A stretch of DNA of 64,000 nt, taken from Malacoraja senta (taxonomy: Eukaryota). Location of the stretch: contig CM075994.1 of the NCBI GenBank assembly GCA_038087875.1, forward strand, positions 682,001 through 746,000. The letters are read 5' to 3'. The first letter of the stretch is position 1, and every line of letters starts with the position of its first letter. Below, one piece after another: positions 44,532 to 63,448 of this stretch. The translations under genes were made by a program, and so were the position numbers. A model generated the notes under the pieces. That model saw nothing but the letters and a program-made list of their open reading frames with translations, was not told where the DNA came from and did not search any database.

Positions 44532-47500
44532 TCAGGTTCCTCGTACATCTTTCCCCCTCACCTTAACACCTATGCACAGAGCAGCGAAGGGGGACGTGAG
44601 CAGGGCGTACAACTGCGCTCTGAACCTGCTCTGGGTGAGGGCGTACACACAGGTGTTTGTGCAGGAACCGAGGCACTTCAGCAGCATCGCGACTTGCACG
44701 GCCGCGTACAGCGAGCGGGGACCGCGGAACGTCACCGTCTCGCTCACCCCCACCCAGGCGTGGATCACCGTGATGGGAACGGCCAGCGCCACGAAGCTCC
44801 CGGAGACGGCGAACAGCAGGGCGACCGAAGCCCTCCGGCTCCTGACCTCGGGGTCATCGCCCCCGCCCCCCTGGCAAGAGCCCTTCAAGGCCAGTCGGGC
44901 CCTGCTGGCCCCTAGAATGTGTCTGGCGGTCAGCGAATTCAGCAGCAGCAGGGCGGGGATGGGGAGGAAGGTGTTGAGGAGGTTGGAGGTCCAGCGATGG
45001 GCGGACCACAGCGGGGATTCCAGGTGACCCGGCACAGAGCAGCATCCGTAGGCCACACGGTGAACGGTGAAACAGGGCCGGTAGCGGAGAGGCAAGGGCG
45101 CGTTCGTCAACACACTGACCATTCCTACCGCCGCTAGCACCATGGCCGCCGTTCTCGCGGTGCAATAAGTGCGCCTCAGCTTCCGGCAACAGATAGCCAC
45201 GAAACGGTCACACGTGAAGGACACGGTGAACCAGGTATTGAGCTGGAAACTGAAGCCTTGCAGGTAGGCACTGAGCCGGCACACGGGCGTGTAGCGGAGC
45301 GGAGACCCGGGGAAGTGGTACCTGAAAGGACAAGCAACGCCGGGGTGACTCAGCGGGTCAGGCAGCGGCTCTGGAAAGAAAAATAGATATACAAAACGCT
45401 GGATGTAACTCAGCGGGTCAGGCAGCAAATGGAGGAAAGATAAACACAAAACGCTGGAGTAACGCAGCGGGTCGGCACGGTGGCGCAGCGGTAGAGTTGC
45501 TGCCAGAGACCCGGGTTCGATTCTGACTACGGGTGCAGTGTGCCCGGAGATTGGCCGTTCTCCCCGTGACATCGTGGGTATTCTCCGGGTGCCCAAGGTT
45601 TCCTCTAACTTTTGCAAGCAGACCAGGGGGGATTTTACAAAAAGGCAATGAACCTACAAACCTGCACGTTTTCGGAGTGTGGGAGCAATCCGGAGCACCT
45701 GGATAAAACCCACGCAGTCACAGGCAGAATGTTCATACTACACACAGACACACGAAGGTCAGAGTCGAACCCAGGTCTTTAGTGCTTTGCGGGGAACAGG
45801 AGCGGGGAAGCGTGGGAAGAGAGAGGGGGTGATGTGGGGTAGAATGGAATGGTCTTTGGGGGAGGTTGGTGAAAGGTTACCTAAAATCGGAGTATTCAAT
45901 GTTCATACCGTTGGGTTGTAAGATGCTGTCCCTCCAGTTTGCGTGTGGCCTCACTCTGGCAGTGAAGGAAGCCCAGGATAAAAAAAGGTCAGTGTGGTAA
46001 CGGGAAGGGAATGGTTAAAAACCGGGAGATCCAGCAGGTCTTGGCGGACCGAGCGCAAGCGTTCGGTGAAATTTTCGCCCAGTCTACACATTGTCTTGCC
46101 GATGTCCAGGAGGCCACATCGGGAACTGGGATATTTCCCGGTGGCCAAACACTTTAACTCCTCCTCCCATTCGCACACCTACCCATTCTGTCAGGGGCCT
46201 CCTCCTTTGTCAGAGTGAGGCCCAGCGCAAACAGGAGCAACAGCACCTCGTGTTTCGCTTGGGCAGCTTACACCGCAGCTTGACTTCTCTAACTCCAAGT
46301 GACCCTTGCTTTTCCTCTCTCTCCATTCCATCCTAATTCCCCGACCAGTCTGACTGTCCCTTTGATTAAATATTTATCTCTCTTTGCTCCGTTGTCCACT
46401 TCCCCGAGCTAACAATGGTCCGTTCTACTTTTCCCTTGATCAGAATACCACTTCACCCCCCACCCCCTTCCCAAATCTTTGCACATCCCCAAACCTTTCC
46501 ATTCGTCACTTTAATTTAATGTATCTTGGTTTTTTTTATGACTGTTAGCAGAATACTTTCCCTCCTGGGATTAGTAAAGTTCTATCGTATTGTACGGTAA
46601 CAGCGTCCCATTTGATGTCTCGTTTTCACAACTTTACTTTTCATATCTCTGCGTGTCCCCCTCCACTGTCTCTGTCTGAAGAAGGCTCTCGACCCGAAAC
46701 GTCACCCATTCTTTCTATCCGCAGATGCTGCCTGTCCCACCGCGTTACTCCAGCGTTTTGTGTCTATCTTCGGCGTAAATCAGCATCTGCAGTTCCTTCC
46801 TACACATGCAGTAGATGAGGTTGGAGCAGGTATCCAGTACGTACCTGACTATCTGGCTGACTATGACGTTGAAGACCAAAACCATGAGATCACCCATCGC
46901 CATGGCCATCATGTAGCAGGTGATGTCTTTGGAGAGACCGCACTTTCCTCGAAACAGGATCACCAAGGACATCAAGTTGGCTGTAAGGAAACACACAACG
47001 GCGAGAAGCAAGAGGGAAATGGGATAGAGGCGTAGGGGACTGCATCTGTAGGGAACGGCAATAAATGTAACCAGAATTTCAGCAGTCCTGAACTACTTTC
47101 TACCTCATTGGTGACACTCGGACCACGTGTGACCGGACTTTGATGGCTTTACCTTGCACTGAACGTCATTCCCTTATCATGTATCTGTACACTGGAAATG
47201 GCTCGATTGTAATCGCGATTTCCGCTGACTGGTTAGCACGCAACAAAAGCTTTTTACTGTACCTCGGTACACGTGATAATGAACTAAATTCAACTGAACT
47301 GAATACGATCCAAGCCATTTGGGTATTTCTTAAACGGAGATTGACAGGTTCTTGATCAATAAGGTTGTTAAAGGATAGGGGGGGAAAGGCAGGAGAATGG
47401 GGGTGGTCAGGGGAAGATAGATCAGCCATGACTGAATGTTACAGGAGACTTGACGGGCTCTTCACATTCACTCCATCCAGGCCATACACAAGATACGAGG

Positions 47501-48287
47501 TCAGGACTGAACCCATGTCTTTTGCGATGTGAGGCAACAACTCTCACTCTGCGCCACGGTGCTAACCTAATTTTAGACAATAAGAGTGAAAACAGCCCAT
47601 TCGGCCCGTCGGACCAGCGACTACCTGCCCAATGTTAGAAGCAATCCGTCTTCCCTTAGCATTGAAGCCAAGAGCACAAAAGTGAACAATCTCATCGTTG
47701 CCCTGACTCTGACCACTGACTGGCACAATGGATGCAGAGAAATCAACTGCAGCCAAAATCAATGAAGAGACATAGAAAGATTCAACCTCCGGTATTCCAG
47801 AGAAAACAATGCAAGTCTGTTCGACTTCTCCTTGTAGCTGATTCCCGCTAAAGCAGGTATCATTCTGGTAAGAGGCACAAAAATGCTGGATTAACTCAGT
47901 GGGTCGGACACCATCTCTGGAGAGAAGGAATAAGTGACATTTCGGGTCGAGACCTTTATTTCAGACCAGTAAGGAGAAAAGAAAACGAGAGATATAGTCG
48001 GTGATAGAGAGAGATAAAGAGCAAATGAATGAAAGCTATGCATAAAGTAACGATGATCAATGAAATGGAGAGCCCATGATGGCCCATTGTTGGATGAGGG
48101 CTAGGTGATAACGAGTTATACAGACAGTGAAATTCAATAAGACGACAGTGTAACTAGTACGACAACTAGGGTGGGGGAAGGGACGGAGAGAAAACCACCG
48201 CTACATTAAATGAAATGACTTACCAGGCACACCAATGACTGCAATAATCGGGTAGAAGATCTCGATGTGAAGTGCGTACGTTCCCAT
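44532..48287 (-). CDS. Class A GPCR, GPR139/GPR142-like family, copy 1 (3 exons, 329 aa, intact)
   Basis: complement(join(44532-45321,46845-46980,48224-48287)) reads MGTYALHIEIFYPIIAVIGVP|ANLMSLVILFRGKCGLSKDITCYMMAMAMGDLMVLVFNVIVSQIV|RYHFPGSPLRYTPVCRL...TVSFTCDRFVAIC...SCTNTCVY. Introns are GT-AG (phase 1 and 2). TM1 Asn, TM2 Asp, the TM3 Cys and DRF are present. Confidence 0.88.
45326..46840 (-). mobile_element. Degraded Penelope-like element forming GPCR intron 2, with nested + strand Penelope piece (~46130-46805) and V-SINE
   Basis: Minus strand reads SNLIYC (46806-46826), then after the nested insert continues SRCGLLDIGKTMCRLGENFTERLRSVR (GIY-YIG). It ends in the GCTGCCTGACCCGCTGAGT tail next to the acceptor. 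Confidence 0.75.
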
Positions 48288-48479: not shown

Positions 48480-51400
48480 ATCAGATTCAGATTCAGATTC
48501 AGATTCAACTTTATTGAATCCACCCACTCACAACAAGGGCAGAGTCCCCCTAGTCCTCACCTTTCACCCCACCAGCCGTCACATACAACAAGTGATCCGT
48601 CAGTTTCGCCACCTCCAACGTGACGCCACCACTCACCACATCTTCCCATCTCCCCCCATGTCTGCCTTCCGCAAAGACCGCTCCCTCCGTAATTCCCTTG
48701 TCAATTCTTCCCTTCCCTCCCATACCACCCCCTCCCCTGGTACTTTCCCTTGCAACCGCAAGAGATGCAACACTTGTCCCTTCACCTCCCCCCTCTACTC
48801 CATTCAAGGACCCAAGCAGTCGTTCCAGGTGCGACAGAGGTTCATCTGCATCTCCTCCAACCTCATCTATTGCATTCGCTGCTCTAGATGCCAGCTGATC
48901 TACATCGGTGAGACCAAGCGGAGGCTTGGCGATCGTTTCGCCGAACACCTCCGGTCGTTCCGCAATAAGCAACCTGAACTCTCGGTGGCTCAGCACTTCA
49001 ACTCCCCCTCCCATTCCGTATCTGACCTCTCTGTCCTGGGTCTCCTCCATGGCCACAGCGAGCAACACCGTAAATTGCAGGAAATGCACCTCATATTCCG
49101 CTTGGGCAGTCTACATCCTGGGGGTTGAACATTGAATTCTCCCAATTCTGCTAGCCCTTGCTGTTCCCTCCCCTTCATCAGCCATCTGGTTGTCTCCTCC
49201 CCTCCCCCAGCCCTCGGGCTCCTCCTCCGCCTTTTTCCTTTTTTTCTTTCTTCTCCCCACCCCCTATCAGTCTGAAGAAGGGTTTCGGCCCGAAACGTTA
49301 CCTATTTCCTTCGCTCCATAGATGCTGCTGCACCCGCTGCGTTTCTCCAGCATTTTTGTGTACCTTCGATTTTCCAGCATCTGCAGTTCCTTCTTTATCA
49401 ACTTTATTGTCATTGTGCAGTGTACGGTACAGAGACTACGAAATGCAGTTAGCATCTCCCTAGAAGAGCGACATAAATATGAGCAGTAAATAAATAAATC
49501 TTATAAATCCTGGTGGGAGGAGTGTGGCGGGGGGGGGGGGGTGATTGGCAGTCACCGAGGTACAGTGTTGAGTAGTGTAACCGCCGCAGGGAAGAAGCTG
49601 TTCCTGGACCTGCTGGTCCGGCAACGGAGAGACCTGAAGCGCCTCCCGGATGCTAGGATGGTAAACAGTCTGTGGTTGGGGTGAGAGCAGTCCTTGGCGA
49701 TGCTGAGCGCCCTTCGCAGACAACGCTTGCTTTGGACAGACTCAATGGTGGGGAGTGCGGAACCGGTGATGCGTTGGACAATTCTCACCACCCTCTGCAG
49801 TGCTTTCCGGTCGGAGACAGTGCAGTTGCCATACCATACTGTGATGCAGTTGGTAAGGATGCTCTCGATGGTGCAGCGGTAGAAGTTCACCAGAATCTGA
49901 GGAGACAGATGGACCTTCTTTAGTCTCCTCAGGAAGAAGAAACGCTGGTGAGCCTCCTTGACCAGAATTGAGGTATTGTTTGTCCAAGAGAGGTCATCGG
50001 AGATGTTGACCCCCAGGAACGTGAAGCTGGAAACACGTTCCACCTCCATCCCGTTAATGTGGATGGGGGTGTACGTGCCGCCCCTAGACTTCCTGAAGTC
50101 TACAATGAGCTCCTTGGTCTTCTTGGAGTTAAGGGCCAGGTTGTTGTCACTGCACCATGCTGCTAGGAGCTGGACCTCCTCCCTATAGGCCGACTCATCG
50201 TGGTTGCTGATGAGGCCAATCACCGTTGTATCATCTGCATACTTGAATATGGTGTTAGTACCATGTACAGGTGTGCAGTCGTAGGTGAAGAGGGAGTAGA
50301 GGAGGGGGCTCAGCACACATCCCTGTGGAACGCCGGTGTTCAGGGTGAGGGTTGAAGAGGTGTGCTTGTCTAACCTAACAGACTGGGGTCTGTTGGTTAG
50401 AAAGTCCAGTATCCAGTTGCAGAGGGAGGCGTCGATGCCCAGGTCACAGAGTTTGGTGATCAGTTTAGAGGGTATGATGGTGTTGAATGCTGAGCTGTAA
50501 TCGATGAACAACGTTCTTACGTAAGGGTCTCTGTTGTCGAGGTGGGAGAGGGTGGTAGTGCCGTTGAGATGGCATCCTCCGTACTCCTGTTCTTCCGGTA
50601 GGCAAACTGATAGGGATCCAATGTGGGGGGTAGGCAGCCTTTGAGGTGTGCCAGGACCAGCCTCTCGAAGCACTTGGCGATGATGGGAGTAAGTGCAACT
50701 GGGCGGAAGTCGTTGAGGCTCGCCGCAGTGGAGTGTTTTGGCACCGGCACGATGGAGGTGGATTTAAGGCACGTGGGCACAACTGCTTGGGCAAGTGACA
50801 GGTTGAAGATGTCAGTCCAGACGTCTGCCAGCTGCGCAGCACAGGCCCTGAGGACGCGCCCGGGAATACCATCGGGGCCAGCAGCCTTACGTGCATTAGT
50901 CCTACTCAGTGCCACGTACACGTCGTAGGGGGTGAGTGAGAGGGGCTGGTGATCGGCAGGGAGCACCGCCTTGATGGCCAACTGCCGATTGTCTCTATCG
51001 AAGCGGCCACAGATGTGGTTAAGCTCCTCAAGGAAGGAGGCGTTGCTGGATGTGGGGGTGGTGTTGGTGGGTCTAAAGTCTGTGATGGCCTGGATGCCTT
51101 GCCACATGCGTCGGGGGTCGGAGTTGTTGTTGAAGTGCTCCTCAATCCCGAGCTTATGGCAGTGCTTGGCCTTCTTTATGCCCTTCTTCAGGTTATCCCT
51201 GGACAGCGCTGACCTCGCTGTTCATCCATGGCTTCTGATTCGGCAATATGGTCACCCGTTTGAGGGAGGTGACACTGTTGATGGTGGAGTTTATAAAGTC
51301 CAGAACAGAGGATGTATTGGAGTCAATGTCCGTGTGGGAGTCAAGGGTGGCCTGGGCTGCAAACGCCTTCCAGTCAGTGTTTCCAAAACACTGCTGAAGT

Positions 51401-57266: not shown

Positions 57267-60200
57267 TCAGGTTCCTCGTACATCTTTCCCCCTCACCTTA
57301 ACAGCTATGCACAGAGCAGCGAAGGGGGACGTGAGCAGGGCGTTCAACAGCGCTCTGAACCTGCTCTGGGTGAGGGCGTACACACGGGTGTTTGTGCAGG
57401 AACCGAGGCACTTCAGCAACATCGCGACTTGCACGGCCGCGTACAGCGAGCGGGGGCCGAGGAACATCACCGTCGCGCGCACCCTGACCCAGGCGTGGAT
57501 CACCGTGATGGGAACGGCCAGCGCCACGAAGCTCCCGGAGACGGCGAACAGCAGGGCGACCGAAGCCCTCCGGCTCCTGACCTCGGGGTCGTCGCCCCCG
57601 CCCCCCTGGCAAGAGCCCTTCAAGGCCAGTCGGGCCCTGCTGGCCCCTAGAATGTGTCTGGCGGTCAGCGAATTCAGCAGCAGCAGGACGGGGATGGGGA
57701 GGAAGGTGTTGAGGACGTTGGAGGCCCAGCGATGGGCGGACCACAGTGGGGATTCCAGGTGACCCGGCACAGGGCAGCAACCGTAGGCCACACGGTGAAC
57801 GGTGAAACAGGGCCGGTAGCGGAGAGGCAAGGGCGCGTTCGTCAACACACTGACCATTCCTACCGCCGCTAGCACCATGGCCGCGGTTCTCTCGGTGCAA
57901 TAAGTGCGCCTCAGCTTCCGGCAACAGATAGCCACGAAACGGTCACACGTGAAGGACACGGTGAACCAGGTATTGAGCTGGAAACTGAAGCCTTGCAGGT
58001 AGGCACTGAGCCGGCTCACGGGCGTGTAGCGGAGCGGAGACCCGGGGAAGTGGTACCTGAAAGGCCAAGAAACGCCGGGGTGACTCAGCGGGTCAGGCAG
58101 CGGCCCTGGAAAGAACAATAGATACAAAACGCTGGAGTAACTCAGCGGGTCAGGCAGCAAATGGAGGAAAGATAAACACAAAACGCTGGGGTAACGCAGC
58201 GGGTCGGCACGGTGGCGCAGCGGTAGAGTTGCTGCCAGAGACCCGGGTTCGATTCTGACTACGGGTGCAGTCTGCCCGGAGATTGGCCGTTCTCCCCGTG
58301 ACATCGTGGGTATTCTCCGGGTGCCCAAGGTTTCCTCTAACTTTTGCAATCAGACCAGTGGAGTGTGGGAGCATCACGGAGCATCCGGATAAAACCCACG
58401 CAGTCACATGCAGAATGTTCATACTACACACAGACACACCATAGTCACAGTCGAACCCAGGTCTTTAGTGCTGTGCGGGGAACAGGAGCGGGGAGGCGTG
58501 GGAAGAGAGAGGGGTGGTGTGGGGTAGAATGGAATGGGCTTTGGGGGAGGTTGGTGAAAGGTTACCTAAAATCGGAGTATTCAATGTGCATACCGTTGGG
58601 TTGTAAGATGCTGTTCCTCCAGTTTGCGTGTGGCCTCACTCTGGCAGTGAAGGAGGCCCAGGATTTAAAAAAAAAGGCCAGTGCGGTAACGGGAAGGGAA
58701 TGGTTAAAAACCGGGAGATCCGGCAGGTCTTGGCGGACCGAGCGCAAGTGTTCGGCGAAATTTTCGCACAGTCGACATACACATTGTCTTGCCGATGTCC
58801 AGGATGCCACATCGGGAAGTGGGATATCTCCCGGTGGCCAAACACTTTTACTCCTCCTCCCATTCGCACACCTACCCATTCTGTCAGGGGCCTCCTCCAT
58901 TGTCAGAGTGAGGCCCAGCGCAAACAGGAGCAACAGCACCTCGTGTTTCGCTTGGGCAGCTTACACCCCAGCTTGACTTCTCTAACTCCAAGTGACCCTT
59001 GCTTTTCCTCCCTCTCCATCCCATCCTAATTCCCTGACCAGTCTGACTGTCCCTTTGATTAAATATTTATCTCTCTTTGCTTCGTTGTCCACTTCCCCGA
59101 GCTAACAATGGTCCATTCTACTTTTCCCTTGATCAGAATACCACTTCACCCCCACCCCCCTTCCCAAATCTTTGGACATCCCCAAACCTTTCCATTCGTC
59201 ACTTTAATTTAATGAAATGTTTCATGTTTTCTTATGACTGTTAGCAGAATACTTTCCCTCCTGGGATTAGTAAAGTACTATCGTAATGTATGGTATCAGC
59301 GTCCCATGTGATGTCTCGTTTTCACACCTTTCCTTTTCATATCTCTGCGTGTCCCCCTCCACTGTCTCTCAGTCTGAAGAAGGCTCTCGACCCGAAACCT
59401 CACCCATTCTTCCTATCGCAGATGCTGCCTGTCCCGCCGCGGGTGGTCAGGGGAAGATAGATCAGCCATGACTGAATGTTACAGTAGACTTGACGGGCTC
59501 TTCACATTCACTCCATCCAGGCCATACACAACACCCGAGGTCAGGACTGAACCCAGGTCTTTTGCGATGTGAGGCAGCAACTCTCCCTCTGCGCCACGGT
59601 GCTACACCTAATTTTAGACAATAAGAGTGAAAACCGGCCATTCGGCCGGTCGGGTCTGCGCAGACCAGCGACTACCTGCCCAATGTTAGAAGCAATCCGT
59701 CTTCCCTTAGCATTGAAACCAAGAGCACAAAAGTGAATAAACTCATCGTTGCCCTGACTCTGACCACTGACTGGCACAATGGATGCAGAGAAAGCAACTG
59801 CAGCCAAAAACAATGAAGAGACATAGAAGGATTCAACCTCCGGTATTCCAGAGAAAACAATCCAAGTCTGTCCGACTTCTCCTTGTAGCTGATTCCCGCT
59901 AAAGCAGGCATCATTCTGGTAAGAGGCACAAAAATGCTGGATTAACTCAGTGGGTCAGACAGCATCTCTGGAGAGAAGGAATAAGTGACATTTCGGGTCG
60001 AGACCTTTATTTCAGACCAGTAAGGAGAAAAGAAAACGAGAGATATAGTCGGTGATAGAGAGAGATAAAGATCAAATGAATGAAAGCTATTCATAAAGTA
60101 ACGATGATCAAGGAAATGGAGAGCCTATGATGGCCCATTGTTGGATGAGGGCTAGGTGATAACGGGTTATACAGACAGTAAAACTCAATAAGACGACAGT

Positions 60201-60337
60201 GAAACTAGTACGACAACTAGGGTGGGGGAGGGACGGTGAGAAAACCACCGCTACATTAAATGAAATGACTTACCAGGCACACCAATGACTGCAATAATCG
60301 GGTAGAAGATCTCGATGTGAAGTGCGTACGTTCCCAT
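57267..60337 (-). pseudogene. GPR139/GPR142-like GPCR copy 2, probable pseudogene
   Basis: Exon 1 (60274-60337) and exon 3 (57267-58056) are present and open. Exon 2 is removed by a ~657-bp deletion at 59440/59441, so an exon1-exon3 splice is out of frame. The TM3 Cys is changed to Ser (TPVC to TPVS). Confidence 0.8.
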
Positions 60338-60529: not shown

Positions 60530-63448
60530 ATCAGATTCAGATTCAGATTCAACTTTATTGTCATTGTGCAGTGTACAGTACAGAGACAACGAAATGCAGT
60601 TAGCATCTCCCTAGAAGAGCGACATAAATATGAGCAGTAAATAAATAAATCTAATAAATCCTGGTGGGAGGAGTGTCCGGGGGGGTGATTGGCAGTCACC
60701 GAGGTACAGTGTTGAGTAGTGAAACAGCCGCAGGGAAGAAGCTGTTCCTGGACCTGCTGGTCCGGCGACGGAGAGACCTGTAGCGCCTCCCGGATGGTAG
60801 GAGGGTAAACAGTCTGTGGTTGGGGTGAGAGCAGTCCTTGGCGATGCTGAGTGCCCTTCGCAGACAACGCTTGCTTTGGACAGACTCAATGGTGGGGAGC
60901 GAGCAACCGGTGATGCGTTGGGCAATTTTCACCACCCTCTGCAGTGCTTTCCGGTCGGAGACAGAGCAGTAGCAATACCATGCTGTGATACAGTTAGTAA
61001 GGATACTCTCGATGGTGCAGCGGTAGAAGTTAACCAGAATCTGAGGAGACAGATGGACCTTCTTTAGTCTCCTCAGGAAGAAGAAACGCTGGTGAGCCAT
61101 CTTGACCAGAGTTGAGGTATTGTTGGTCCAAGAGAGGTCATCGGAGATGTTGACCCCCAGGAACCTGAAGCTGAAACACGTTCCACCTCCGTCCCGTTAA
61201 TGTGGATGGGGGTGTGCGTGCCGCCCCTAGACTTGCTGAAGTCTACAATGAGCTCCTTGGTCTTCTTGGAGTTAAGGGCCAGGTTGTTGTCAGTGCACCA
61301 TGCTGCTAGGAGCTGGACCTCCTCCCTATAGGCCGACTCATCGTTGTTGCTGATGAGGCCAATCACCGTTGTATCATCTGCATACTTGATGATGGTGTTA
61401 GTACCATGTACAGGTGTGCAGTCGTAGGTGAAGAGGGAGTAGAGGAGGGGGCTCAGCACATAGCCCTGTGGAACGCCGGTGTTCAGCGTGAGGGTTGAAG
61501 AGGTGTGCTTGTCTAACCTAACAGACTGGGGTCTGTTGGTTAGAAAGTCCAGTATCCAGTTGCAGAGGGAGGGGTCGATGCCCAGGTCACCGAGTTTGGT
61601 GATCAGTTTAGAGGGTATGATGGTGTTGAATGCTGAGCTGTAATCGATGAACAGCATTCTTACGTAAGTGTCTCTGTTGTCGACGTGGGAGAGGGCGGAG
61701 TGAAGTGCCGTTGAGATGGCATCCTCCGTACTCCTGTTCTTGCGGTAGGCAAACTGATAGGGATCCAATGTGGGGGGTAGGCAGCCTTTGAGGTGTGCCA
61801 GCACCAGCCTCTCGAAGTACTTGGCGATGATGGGAGTAAGTGCAACTGGGCGGAAGTCGTTGAGGCTTGCCGCAGTCGAGTGTTTTGGCACCGGCACGCT
61901 GGAGGTGGATTTACGGCACGTGGGGACAACTGCTTGGGCAAGTGACAGGTTGAAGATGTCAGTCCAGACGTCTGTCAGCTGCGCAGCACAGGCCCTGAGG
62001 ACGCGCCCGGGGATGCCGTCGGGGCCAGCAGCCTTACGTGCATTAGTCCTACTCAGTGCCACGTACACGTCGTAGGGGGTGAGTGAGAGGGGCTGGTGAT
62101 CGGCAGGGAGCACCGCCTTGATGGCCAACTGCCGATTGTCCCTATGGAAGCGGCCATAGAAGTGGTTAAGCTCCTCAAGGAAGGAGGCGTTGCTGGATGT
62201 GGGGGTGGTGTTGGTGGGTCTAAAGTCCATGATGGCCTGGATGCCTTGCCACATGCGTCGGGGGTCGGAGTTGTTGTTGAAGTGCTCCTCAATCCTGAGC
62301 TTATGGCAGTGCTTGGCCTTCTTTATGCCCTTCTTCAGGTTCGCCCTGGATGAACTATAGGCTCGGGCATCGCCTGATCTGAAAGCGGTGTCCCGTGCTT
62401 TCAGCAGTAGCCTGACCTCGCTGTTCATCCATGGCTTCTGATTCGGGAATATGGTCACCCGTTTGAGGGAGGTGACACTGTTGATGGTGGAGATTATAAA
62501 GTCCAGAACAGTCAAGGGTGGCCTGGGCTGCAAACGCCTTCCAGTCAGTGTTTCCAAAACACTGCTGAAGTGTGATGTACGCATCCACTGACCAGACTTT
62601 AACTGTCCTCACAGTGCGTTTAACCCGTCTGATGAGTGGGGAACACTTTGGGAGCAGGAACAATGAGAGGTGATCAGACTGTCCAAGGTGGGGGAGTGGG
62701 ACTGCTTTGTAAGCTACAGCCATGTTGGTGTAGACTTTGTCCAGTGTCTTGTCTTCTCTAGTGGCGAAGGAGACATGTTGGTGGAATTTGGGGAGTACAG
62801 TCTTCAGGTTGGAGTGATTGAAGTCACCCGCAACAACGAAGGCTGCCTCGGGGTTGTGAGTCTGTTGTTTGCTAATGGCAGTATGCAGATCTTTCATTGC
62901 AAGCTTGGCATTAGCATCAGGAGGAATATAGGCTGCAGTCACAACAGTGGAGGTAAACTCTCTGGGCAGATAGAACGGTCTGCAACTAACCAAGAGGAAC
63001 TCTAGGTTAGCTGAGCAGTGACTCTCGATGATGGTGGTGTCCGTGCACCATGCTTTGTTTACATAAATGCACAGACCTCCACCTCTGGTCTTTCCGGAGT
63101 CTGTTGTCCTGTCCGCTCGGAGTAAATGCCGGCCCGTTAGCTGGATGGCGCTGTCAGGAACGTCGGTGTTGAGCCAAGTTTCAGTGACGATCAAGATGCT
63201 GCAGTCTTTGATCCAGTTGTGGGAGGTGATCCTTAGCCGGAGTTCGTCCATTTTGCTTGCAAGTGAACGCACGTTGGCGAGGAAAAGGCTAGGAATCGCT
63301 AGCCTGTGTGGGACTAGCTCTAACCTGGCCTTTAACCCACCTCTGCGTCCCCGGCGGTGCTTCCGTTCACGTCGCCGTCTGTTGGTGCTTCCGGTCGGCC
63401 GAGCTGGTGCGCGCTGGTGTTCTGCCGCCCCGCGACTCCGCTGGCGTT
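60530..63448 (-). mobile_element. Rex1/Babar-like LINE (EN+RT, frameshifted), unit 2
   Basis: ORFs 62355-63272 (EN), 61073-62584 (RT) and 60696-61100, with a (TGAATC)n tail. Same insertion site as in unit 1. Confidence 0.93.

Follow-up and report, generated by a model that had tools for sequence, protein, structure and literature searches.

A Penelope-like retroelement as the probable source of a second intron in a GPR139-like receptor gene of skates

Transposons can create introns by entering AG/GT proto-splice sites, where the target duplication puts the same word at both ends of the insert and permits its exact removal (Yenerall and Zhou 2012, PMC3443670). The model figure of that paper describes the kind of case found here in a skate receptor gene, and the 35 events of its table come from rice, Drosophila, Oikopleura and maize, with no vertebrate among them; in the skate intron, the branch point and the pyrimidine tract appear to come from the element as well. 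Introners of the Florenciella type take both splice sites from the insertion site, as in the skate intron (PMC9860276), and about 5% of the classified introner families are non-LTR retrotransposons (Gozashti et al. 2022, PMC9860276; 2025, PMC12130899). However, introners are families which make many introns, and the skate Penelope accounts for one event; the skate intron works like an introner, and one event falls short of demonstrating an introner family. The word Penelope has 0 occurrences in the main texts of these two papers, and in 12 of the 14 supplements of the 2025 paper it is present only as a bird genus; the 2025 survey lists Leucoraja, Amblyraja and Rhincodon with 0 introner families (PMC12130899).

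Among vertebrates, introns 3 and 5 of notothenioid slc26a2 (PMC12357937) were gained from a mobile element, have their splice sites within repeats and received a later nested insertion, and the skate intron resembles them in these respects. In contrast to the skate case, with its retroelement, 8-nt repeat and cartilaginous fish host, the slc26a2 source, found in a teleost, is an inverted-repeat element that is unclassified and has direct repeats of 4 nt. Teleosts have high intron turnover, unlike cartilaginous fishes, for which low turnover was reported in the elephant shark (PMC3964593). Fish GPCR and serpin genes have also gained introns (PMC3151243, PMC2746811), which are, as here, new ones in vertebrate genes otherwise poor in introns; according to the abstracts, how these arose is obscure or unknown, whereas the source sequence in the skate is still readable. 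Penelope/Poseidon-type elements (PMC11167929, PMC3846280) share with the skate elements the GIY-YIG end, two 3' end points, 8-15-bp duplications and head-to-head inverted builds; we found no description of intron creation there, and the skate intron itself is without an RT domain. In the literature searched (subscription journals being outside its scope), we found no Penelope-made intron and no transposon-made intron of a cartilaginous fish. The insertion mechanism is already known; within that literature, the Penelope source appears new.

The window analysed here is a stretch of 64,000 nt of Malacoraja senta DNA, and its minus strand carries a GPR139-like GPCR gene with three exons (48287-48224, 46980-46845 and 45321-44532). 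The predicted receptor has a 7tm_1 domain, and its best matches in sharks and rays are annotated as 'probable GPR139', an automatic label that need not imply orthology to true GPR139. The features of the gene, and a tandem copy in the same window, are as follows.

48224..48287, minus strand: exon 1 of the GPR139-like GPCR (MGTYALH...GVP), from the N-terminus match to proteins P0001 and P0002; the family-wide first intron comes next
46845..46980, minus strand: exon 2, TM1-TM2 region, last bases ...GTC AG, read from the sequence
46841..46848, minus strand: first copy of TCAGGTAC, exon-2 end and donor +1 to +4, read from the sequence
45322..46844, minus strand: second intron, probably gained, 1,523 nt, phase 2, GT-AG, read from the sequence
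45318..45325, minus strand: second copy of TCAGGTAC, acceptor TCAG and exon-3 start, read from the sequence
44532..45321, minus strand: exon 3, remainder of the 7TM receptor, from the Pfam 7tm_1 match
57267..60327, minus strand: tandem copy with the same acceptor, exon 2 and donor deleted, breakpoint near 59441

The second intron (gene strand, 46844-45322) starts with GTACGT, ends with TTTCAG, and interrupts the receptor gene between GATAGTCAG, the end of exon 2 at 46845, and G/TACCAC, with which exon 3 opens at 45321. An earlier note on this DNA had claimed that removal of the element and one repeat copy restores the frame, and the joined exons 2 and 3 do read IV-R-YH in a three-exon frame of 329 aa. 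This joined frame parallels the annotated Rhinoraja and Leucoraja proteins through SQIVRYHFPGS (exon 3 identity 88% and 90%, respectively), and retention of the intron stops the frame 34 codons into the insert. The same note had reported one 8-mer bracketing the intron. On the plus strand, GTACCTGA indeed sits at 45318-45325 and 46841-46848, with a third occurrence at 58053, the acceptor of the tandem copy. Read on the gene strand, this direct repeat holds AG/GT at both junctions, and given AG/GT at both, the four further matches have a chance of about 1% (0.25 x 0.65 x 0.6 x 0.08, with general splice-consensus frequencies). The view that the repeat supplies both splice sites holds for the GT and AG cores and fails for donor +5G/+6T: the repeat's share of the donor is +1 to +4 only, and the next two bases come from a 9-nt filler. 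At the acceptor, TCAG may be target sequence and microhomology at once, because the Penelope tail itself continues as TTCGG or TTCAG, which the acceptor resembles.

From base +14 through -5, the intron is filled by Penelope and other repeat sequence, and its parts are listed below together with a young insertion of the same family in the window.

46832..46840, minus strand: 9-nt filler GTACTGGAT, intron +5 to +13, giving donor +5G/+6T; nothing upstream of +14 aligns with family copies
46806..46831, minus strand: putative founding sense Penelope, 5' end, GIY-YIG codons SNLIYC, from a sequence match
46136..46805, plus strand: nested antisense Penelope 3' part with GIY-YIG end, 3' UTR and long tail ...CCTACAC, of a subfamily differing from that of the sense piece
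45795..46134, minus strand: sense Penelope continuation (SRCGLLDIGK..., 3' UTR), best outside copies 74-80% identical
45470..45792: two SINE-like pieces of high copy number, nested and oppositely oriented
45326..45473, minus strand: three tandem Penelope short-tail units, the last one ending at -5, from a sequence match
48505..49410, plus strand: young Penelope insertion (element 48517-49398), flanked by the 12-bp duplication TCAACTTTATTG; the tandem copy has the empty site, at 60549-60560

The sense 5' piece at +14 to +39 is only 26 nt long and is identical to the young Penelope at 22 of 24 nt (pairwise E 2.6e-5), so that the GIY-YIG fragment SNLIYC reported earlier is real, though short. After the antisense Penelope (+40 to about +709), the sense piece picks up at the next codons from about +711 (SRCGLLDIGK..RLRSVR; tblastn E 5.6e-9), colinear with the SNLIYC piece. 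Both the resumption after a nested insertion and the multiple nesting had been recognised before; the nested material consists of the antisense Penelope and the two high-copy pieces, which are SINE-like. The element had also been placed just inside the donor, which is right for the sense piece from +14 once 9 nt of other sequence are allowed to intervene; these nine bases (+5 to +13), when aligned against the Penelope family copies, gave no match. On the 3' side, the element reaches -5, and the tail, said to run up to the acceptor and to provide its pyrimidine tract, does so through its last unit; beyond this description, the tail is tripled and the last unit, which is decayed, carries CTGAC at -40 and TCAC at -27, presumably branch-point-like motifs, in addition to the pyrimidine tract. 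The intron pieces match the young element of the window, and that element matches Pfam GIY-YIG with E 1.8e-4 and 22.2 bits, just below the 22.6 cut-off. No RT domain is left in the intron, and all Penelope copies read are 5'-truncated. The sense and antisense parts overlap by CTGG(G)AT at their junction; their origin in one fold-back event was set aside, as their 3' UTRs are not alignable beyond 54 nt.

Whether related genes share the intron is seen from the paralogues. A genome search with exon 2 gave at least 150 scored matches, namely 17 near-identical ones, whose open frames are short, and 133 others that are more distant and mostly have frames near 300 aa. All 17 exon-2/exon-3 pairs of the tandem subfamily have the intron, and because these introns are 95-97% identical to each other, they are best regarded as copies of one event that was followed by tandem duplication. 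In the other paralogue loci read, the sister subfamily included, the site is without an insert in 57 of 57: 54 translate across it, one has internal stops in a match that spans it, and the remaining two carry 1-nt deletions and no insert. Thus, the same intron, which in distant paralogues would have spoken for an ancestral origin, is absent from them, and all of the at least 113 listed matches of P0042 cross the site in one stretch. Two loci (L124 and L125), where the match began near the junction, were considered as second intron carriers and rejected, since they have 1-nt frameshifts without an insert. AG is found at the first intron's acceptor position in 53 of the 54 parsed paralogues, and the earlier suggestion that related receptors have the first intron only agrees with this, as they share just that acceptor. 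At the insertion site, the sister subfamily reads CTC AGC TAT (10/16) or CTC AAC TAT (6/16) and the focal gene GTC AGG TAC, so that the sister genes hold a single TCAGCTAT or TCAACTAT, with 6 or 5 of the 8 letters of the repeat. In a quick tree of 52 selected rows with SH-aLRT support only, the focal genes are joined by Rhinoraja and Leucoraja, then by sawfish and then by sharks; the sister subfamily groups with the focal clade at SH-aLRT 100, and the skate stem has a length of 0.34. Because genes of the same genome in the sister subfamily are unbroken, the intron gain post-dates the split of the focal and sister subfamilies. In this genome, the GPR139-like family as a whole numbers well over 100 genes (at least 150, at least 113 and at least 140 scored matches, some of which may be haplotypes). 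A literature search for 'GPR139' together with 'elasmobranch' returned no paper, and the receptor repertoire is apparently little studied.

The intron is also found in other organisms, and contigs from eight of the ten listed (coded B, C, D, F, G, H, I and J) were compared. The acceptor junction, from exon 3 into the intron, is crossed by contigs of 8/8 organisms and the donor junction, from exon 2 into the intron, by contigs of 4/4, each at about 95% identity; among the matches listed for these contigs, there was no exon 2-exon 3 joint. Acceptor position -4 is T in this genome and in B, F and H, and G in C, D, G, I and J, which leaves five of the eight with a 7-nt repeat. Organism F has a derived Ala-to-Ser change (45269) in common with the G-bearing group and Leucoraja, yet its -4 stays T, and because of this, T at -4 with the full 8-mer would be the simplest ancestral state, by parsimony from this one shared change. 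Organism H has A as the first base of exon 3, with the codon still Arg. The split codon gives R in 5/5 skate proteins and K or M in 14/23 close shark proteins (9 of the 23 placed in the tree, the others assigned by similarity), and K or M excludes G at donor -1 in those sharks. Sawfish P0075 keeps IVRY across the site, which is compatible with one repeat copy; the empty site itself is seen in a paralogue, the sawfish and shark evidence being from proteins. Further orthologues were sought in metagenomes (just 4 loci, 22-23% identity), by a short-protein search (one match, 125 aa, 51%) and with the sawfish query, for which there was no stingray orthologue among the best 120 matches.

The Penelope family of this genome provides a control for the proposed insertion. 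The duplicated word of the young copy in the window flanks it twice and occurs once in the tandem copy. Of 154 Penelope tails in unrelated loci, 77 end at a short point and 54 at a long point, and these two end points fit the two initiation sites of PMC11167929. The short ends lie at reference positions 36-48, and the tail of the intron stops in the same range. The loci read have one tail per 2.1 kb, and from the 77 short ends in 324 kb of such repeat-rich sequence, the chance of a short tail end on the sense strand within 3 nt of -5 is about 8e-4. A tail followed by TTCAGGT is found at 37 genomic places, 30 of which were examined, and an upstream repeat of 8-15 bp is present in 8/30; since these loci were picked for the tail and CAG/GT pattern, they show the recurrence of the build, not its frequency. 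Seven of the eight duplications have 10-15 nt and one, adjoining an inverted tail, has 8 nt, against a control in which 25/870 mismatched pairs had a repeat of at least 10 nt. AG/GT is present on both sides in 5/8 of the duplicated loci, none of which is recognisably in a coding exon, as judged by open-frame length alone. One locus (L163) combines a 10-bp repeat with AG/GT, a 5'-cut sense piece and a short tail, which is the build of the proposed founding event. Among 35 tail copies scored, the continuation is TTCGG in 19 and TTCAG in 6. Five other loci (L167, L177, L178, L184 and L185) are short Penelope inserts of 150-1,360 nt in which an inverted long tail and then a sense short tail stand between the two copies of the duplication, and the two ends of each insert use the two different initiation points. 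In the flanks of four paralogues (L020, L023, L024 and L028), a Penelope tail ending TTCAG/GT precedes the main exon by about 230 nt and is possibly a cryptic acceptor inside intron 1.

Taken as a whole chain, the reading that the intron arose from a Penelope insertion into a coding exon and is likely spliced out exactly is given a probability of roughly 0.72, on sequence evidence. In an ancestor of skates, a 5'-truncated Penelope would have inserted in the sense direction into the exon sequence GTC AGG TAC, and target-primed insertion from the short 3' end of the element would have duplicated TCAGGTAC. The upstream repeat copy would then give the donor core AG/GTAC, the filler +5G/+6T, the downstream copy AG, and the element tail the branch-point-like CTGAC/TCAC with the pyrimidine tract; with donor, acceptor and tail signals in place, the former mRNA would be recovered by splicing straight away. 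Exact splicing is likely, as predicted from the conserved junctions and exons. The antisense Penelope, the two SINE-like pieces and the tail duplications would be later additions, and tandem expansion would then have raised the gene to 17 or more copies in this genome, of which 7 are intact. The traceable intron gain of the earlier note is thus supported by the absence from paralogues and by the duplications and 3' ends of the family; the splicing and the orthologous empty site are the inferred links of the chain.

An older intron, gained in some other way once the sister subfamily had split off and maybe before the skates, and later filled with Penelope and SINE sequence, is an unlikely source. 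It would have the 8-mer as a proto-splice-site coincidence, and it draws on the density of the tails, on bases +5 to +13 that are not element-derived, on nested insertions that prove later filling, and on a DNA comparison confined to paralogues and skate-like contigs. However, it requires three coincidences, namely four matching bases (about 1%, on general splice-site frequencies), a tail end at -5 (about 8e-4) and a colinear sense piece from +14; in addition, no unique old intron sequence is left, and shark residues vary freely at the split codon.

Less probable again is double-strand-break repair, in which Penelope cDNA would be captured as filler and a short direct repeat left, with no endonuclease of the element involved. 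The 3' end of the intron is the standard short end of the Penelope family, and 8 bp is within the range of the family here and of the 8-10 bp of rotifer Penelopes (PMC3846280), both of which argue for insertion by the element's own route. Repair would better suit the target, which is GC-balanced and not AT-rich, against the AT-rich target preference of the anole Penelope element (PMC11167929), and also the possible TCAG microhomology with the tail and the 9-nt filler at the 5' junction.

Of the 17 copies, 7 are intact; 6 have stops or frameshifts, 3 have CGG for the acceptor with AG lost, and one is without a detected exon 1. pN/pS is 0.53 among the 7 intact copies and 0.73 over 13 copies of this genome, and the intron distance (0.032) is below the synonymous distance (0.060) among copies, so that selection within this genome appears weak. 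If the insert were poorly spliced and the subfamily consisted of element-disrupted pseudogenes, these 10/17 broken or incomplete copies, the pN/pS values, the long skate stem and the read-through stop would be as expected. Across organisms, in contrast, junctions and exons are kept at about 95% identity with synonymous changes in excess: the exon differences listed among the other organisms amount to at least 13 synonymous and at least 13 replacement changes against 238:686 sites (p 0.007; lineages mixed), and among the matches listed, exon 2 shows a single difference and the neighbouring 120 nt of intron 1 show 17. Moreover, the annotated Leucoraja and Rhinoraja proteins, which are gene models, cross the join without a stop, and we consider the pseudogene explanation highly improbable. 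An ancestral family intron lost in every other branch is nearly refuted by the paralogue sequences, since unbroken genes occur in at least five separate paralogue lineages of this genome, on either side of the tree, and repeated exact losses would be needed; no observation speaks for it.

An intron born from a Penelope element would be useful in several respects. Vertebrates seldom gain introns, and the sequence from which a new one came has nearly always been lost. Here, one can still read the class of the source, its two ends, the target duplication, a control insertion that matches and the nesting that followed. The gain would fall in a low-turnover lineage that a large survey scored without introners, the locus offers a direct test of a retroelement tail as an instant 3' splice site, and the intron is a rare shared character for skates. 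We can also imagine, as a speculation that is more doubtful than probable, that the skate Penelope family is a latent intron maker with this gene as one fixed product, in which case more Penelope-born introns would be expected in sharks and rays and the family would be the first vertebrate retroelement source of an introner-like kind. Its short 3' end would bring a branch point and pyrimidine tract beside (C)AG, and a sense insertion with AG/GT in the 8-15-bp duplication would be born splice-ready.

The tandem array (G000:C18:726535-983334 and C1041) has at least 19 exon-3 copies, 17 of them with exon 2, which are 93-100% identical, lie in both orientations and have a GC3 of 0.81. Its pattern fits the birth and death of receptors after a working gene was inherited, and the expansion may be lineage-specific, the other organisms having mostly one contig. 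In the window copy at 57267-60327, a deletion joins intron 1 to intron 2 near 59441. The three copies with a CGG acceptor are at G000:C18:952661, 964519 and 981057, and CGG is also the commonest form of the Penelope tail there. Finally, one tandem copy carries a 4,744-nt LTR retroelement exactly at the donor of the new intron (G000:C18:964660-969403; L047/L048), with 204-nt repeats that are 98.5% alike, TG...CA ends and matches to protease, RT, RNase H and integrase; GGTAC is duplicated around it, and the same AG/GT word has thereby been doubled a second time.
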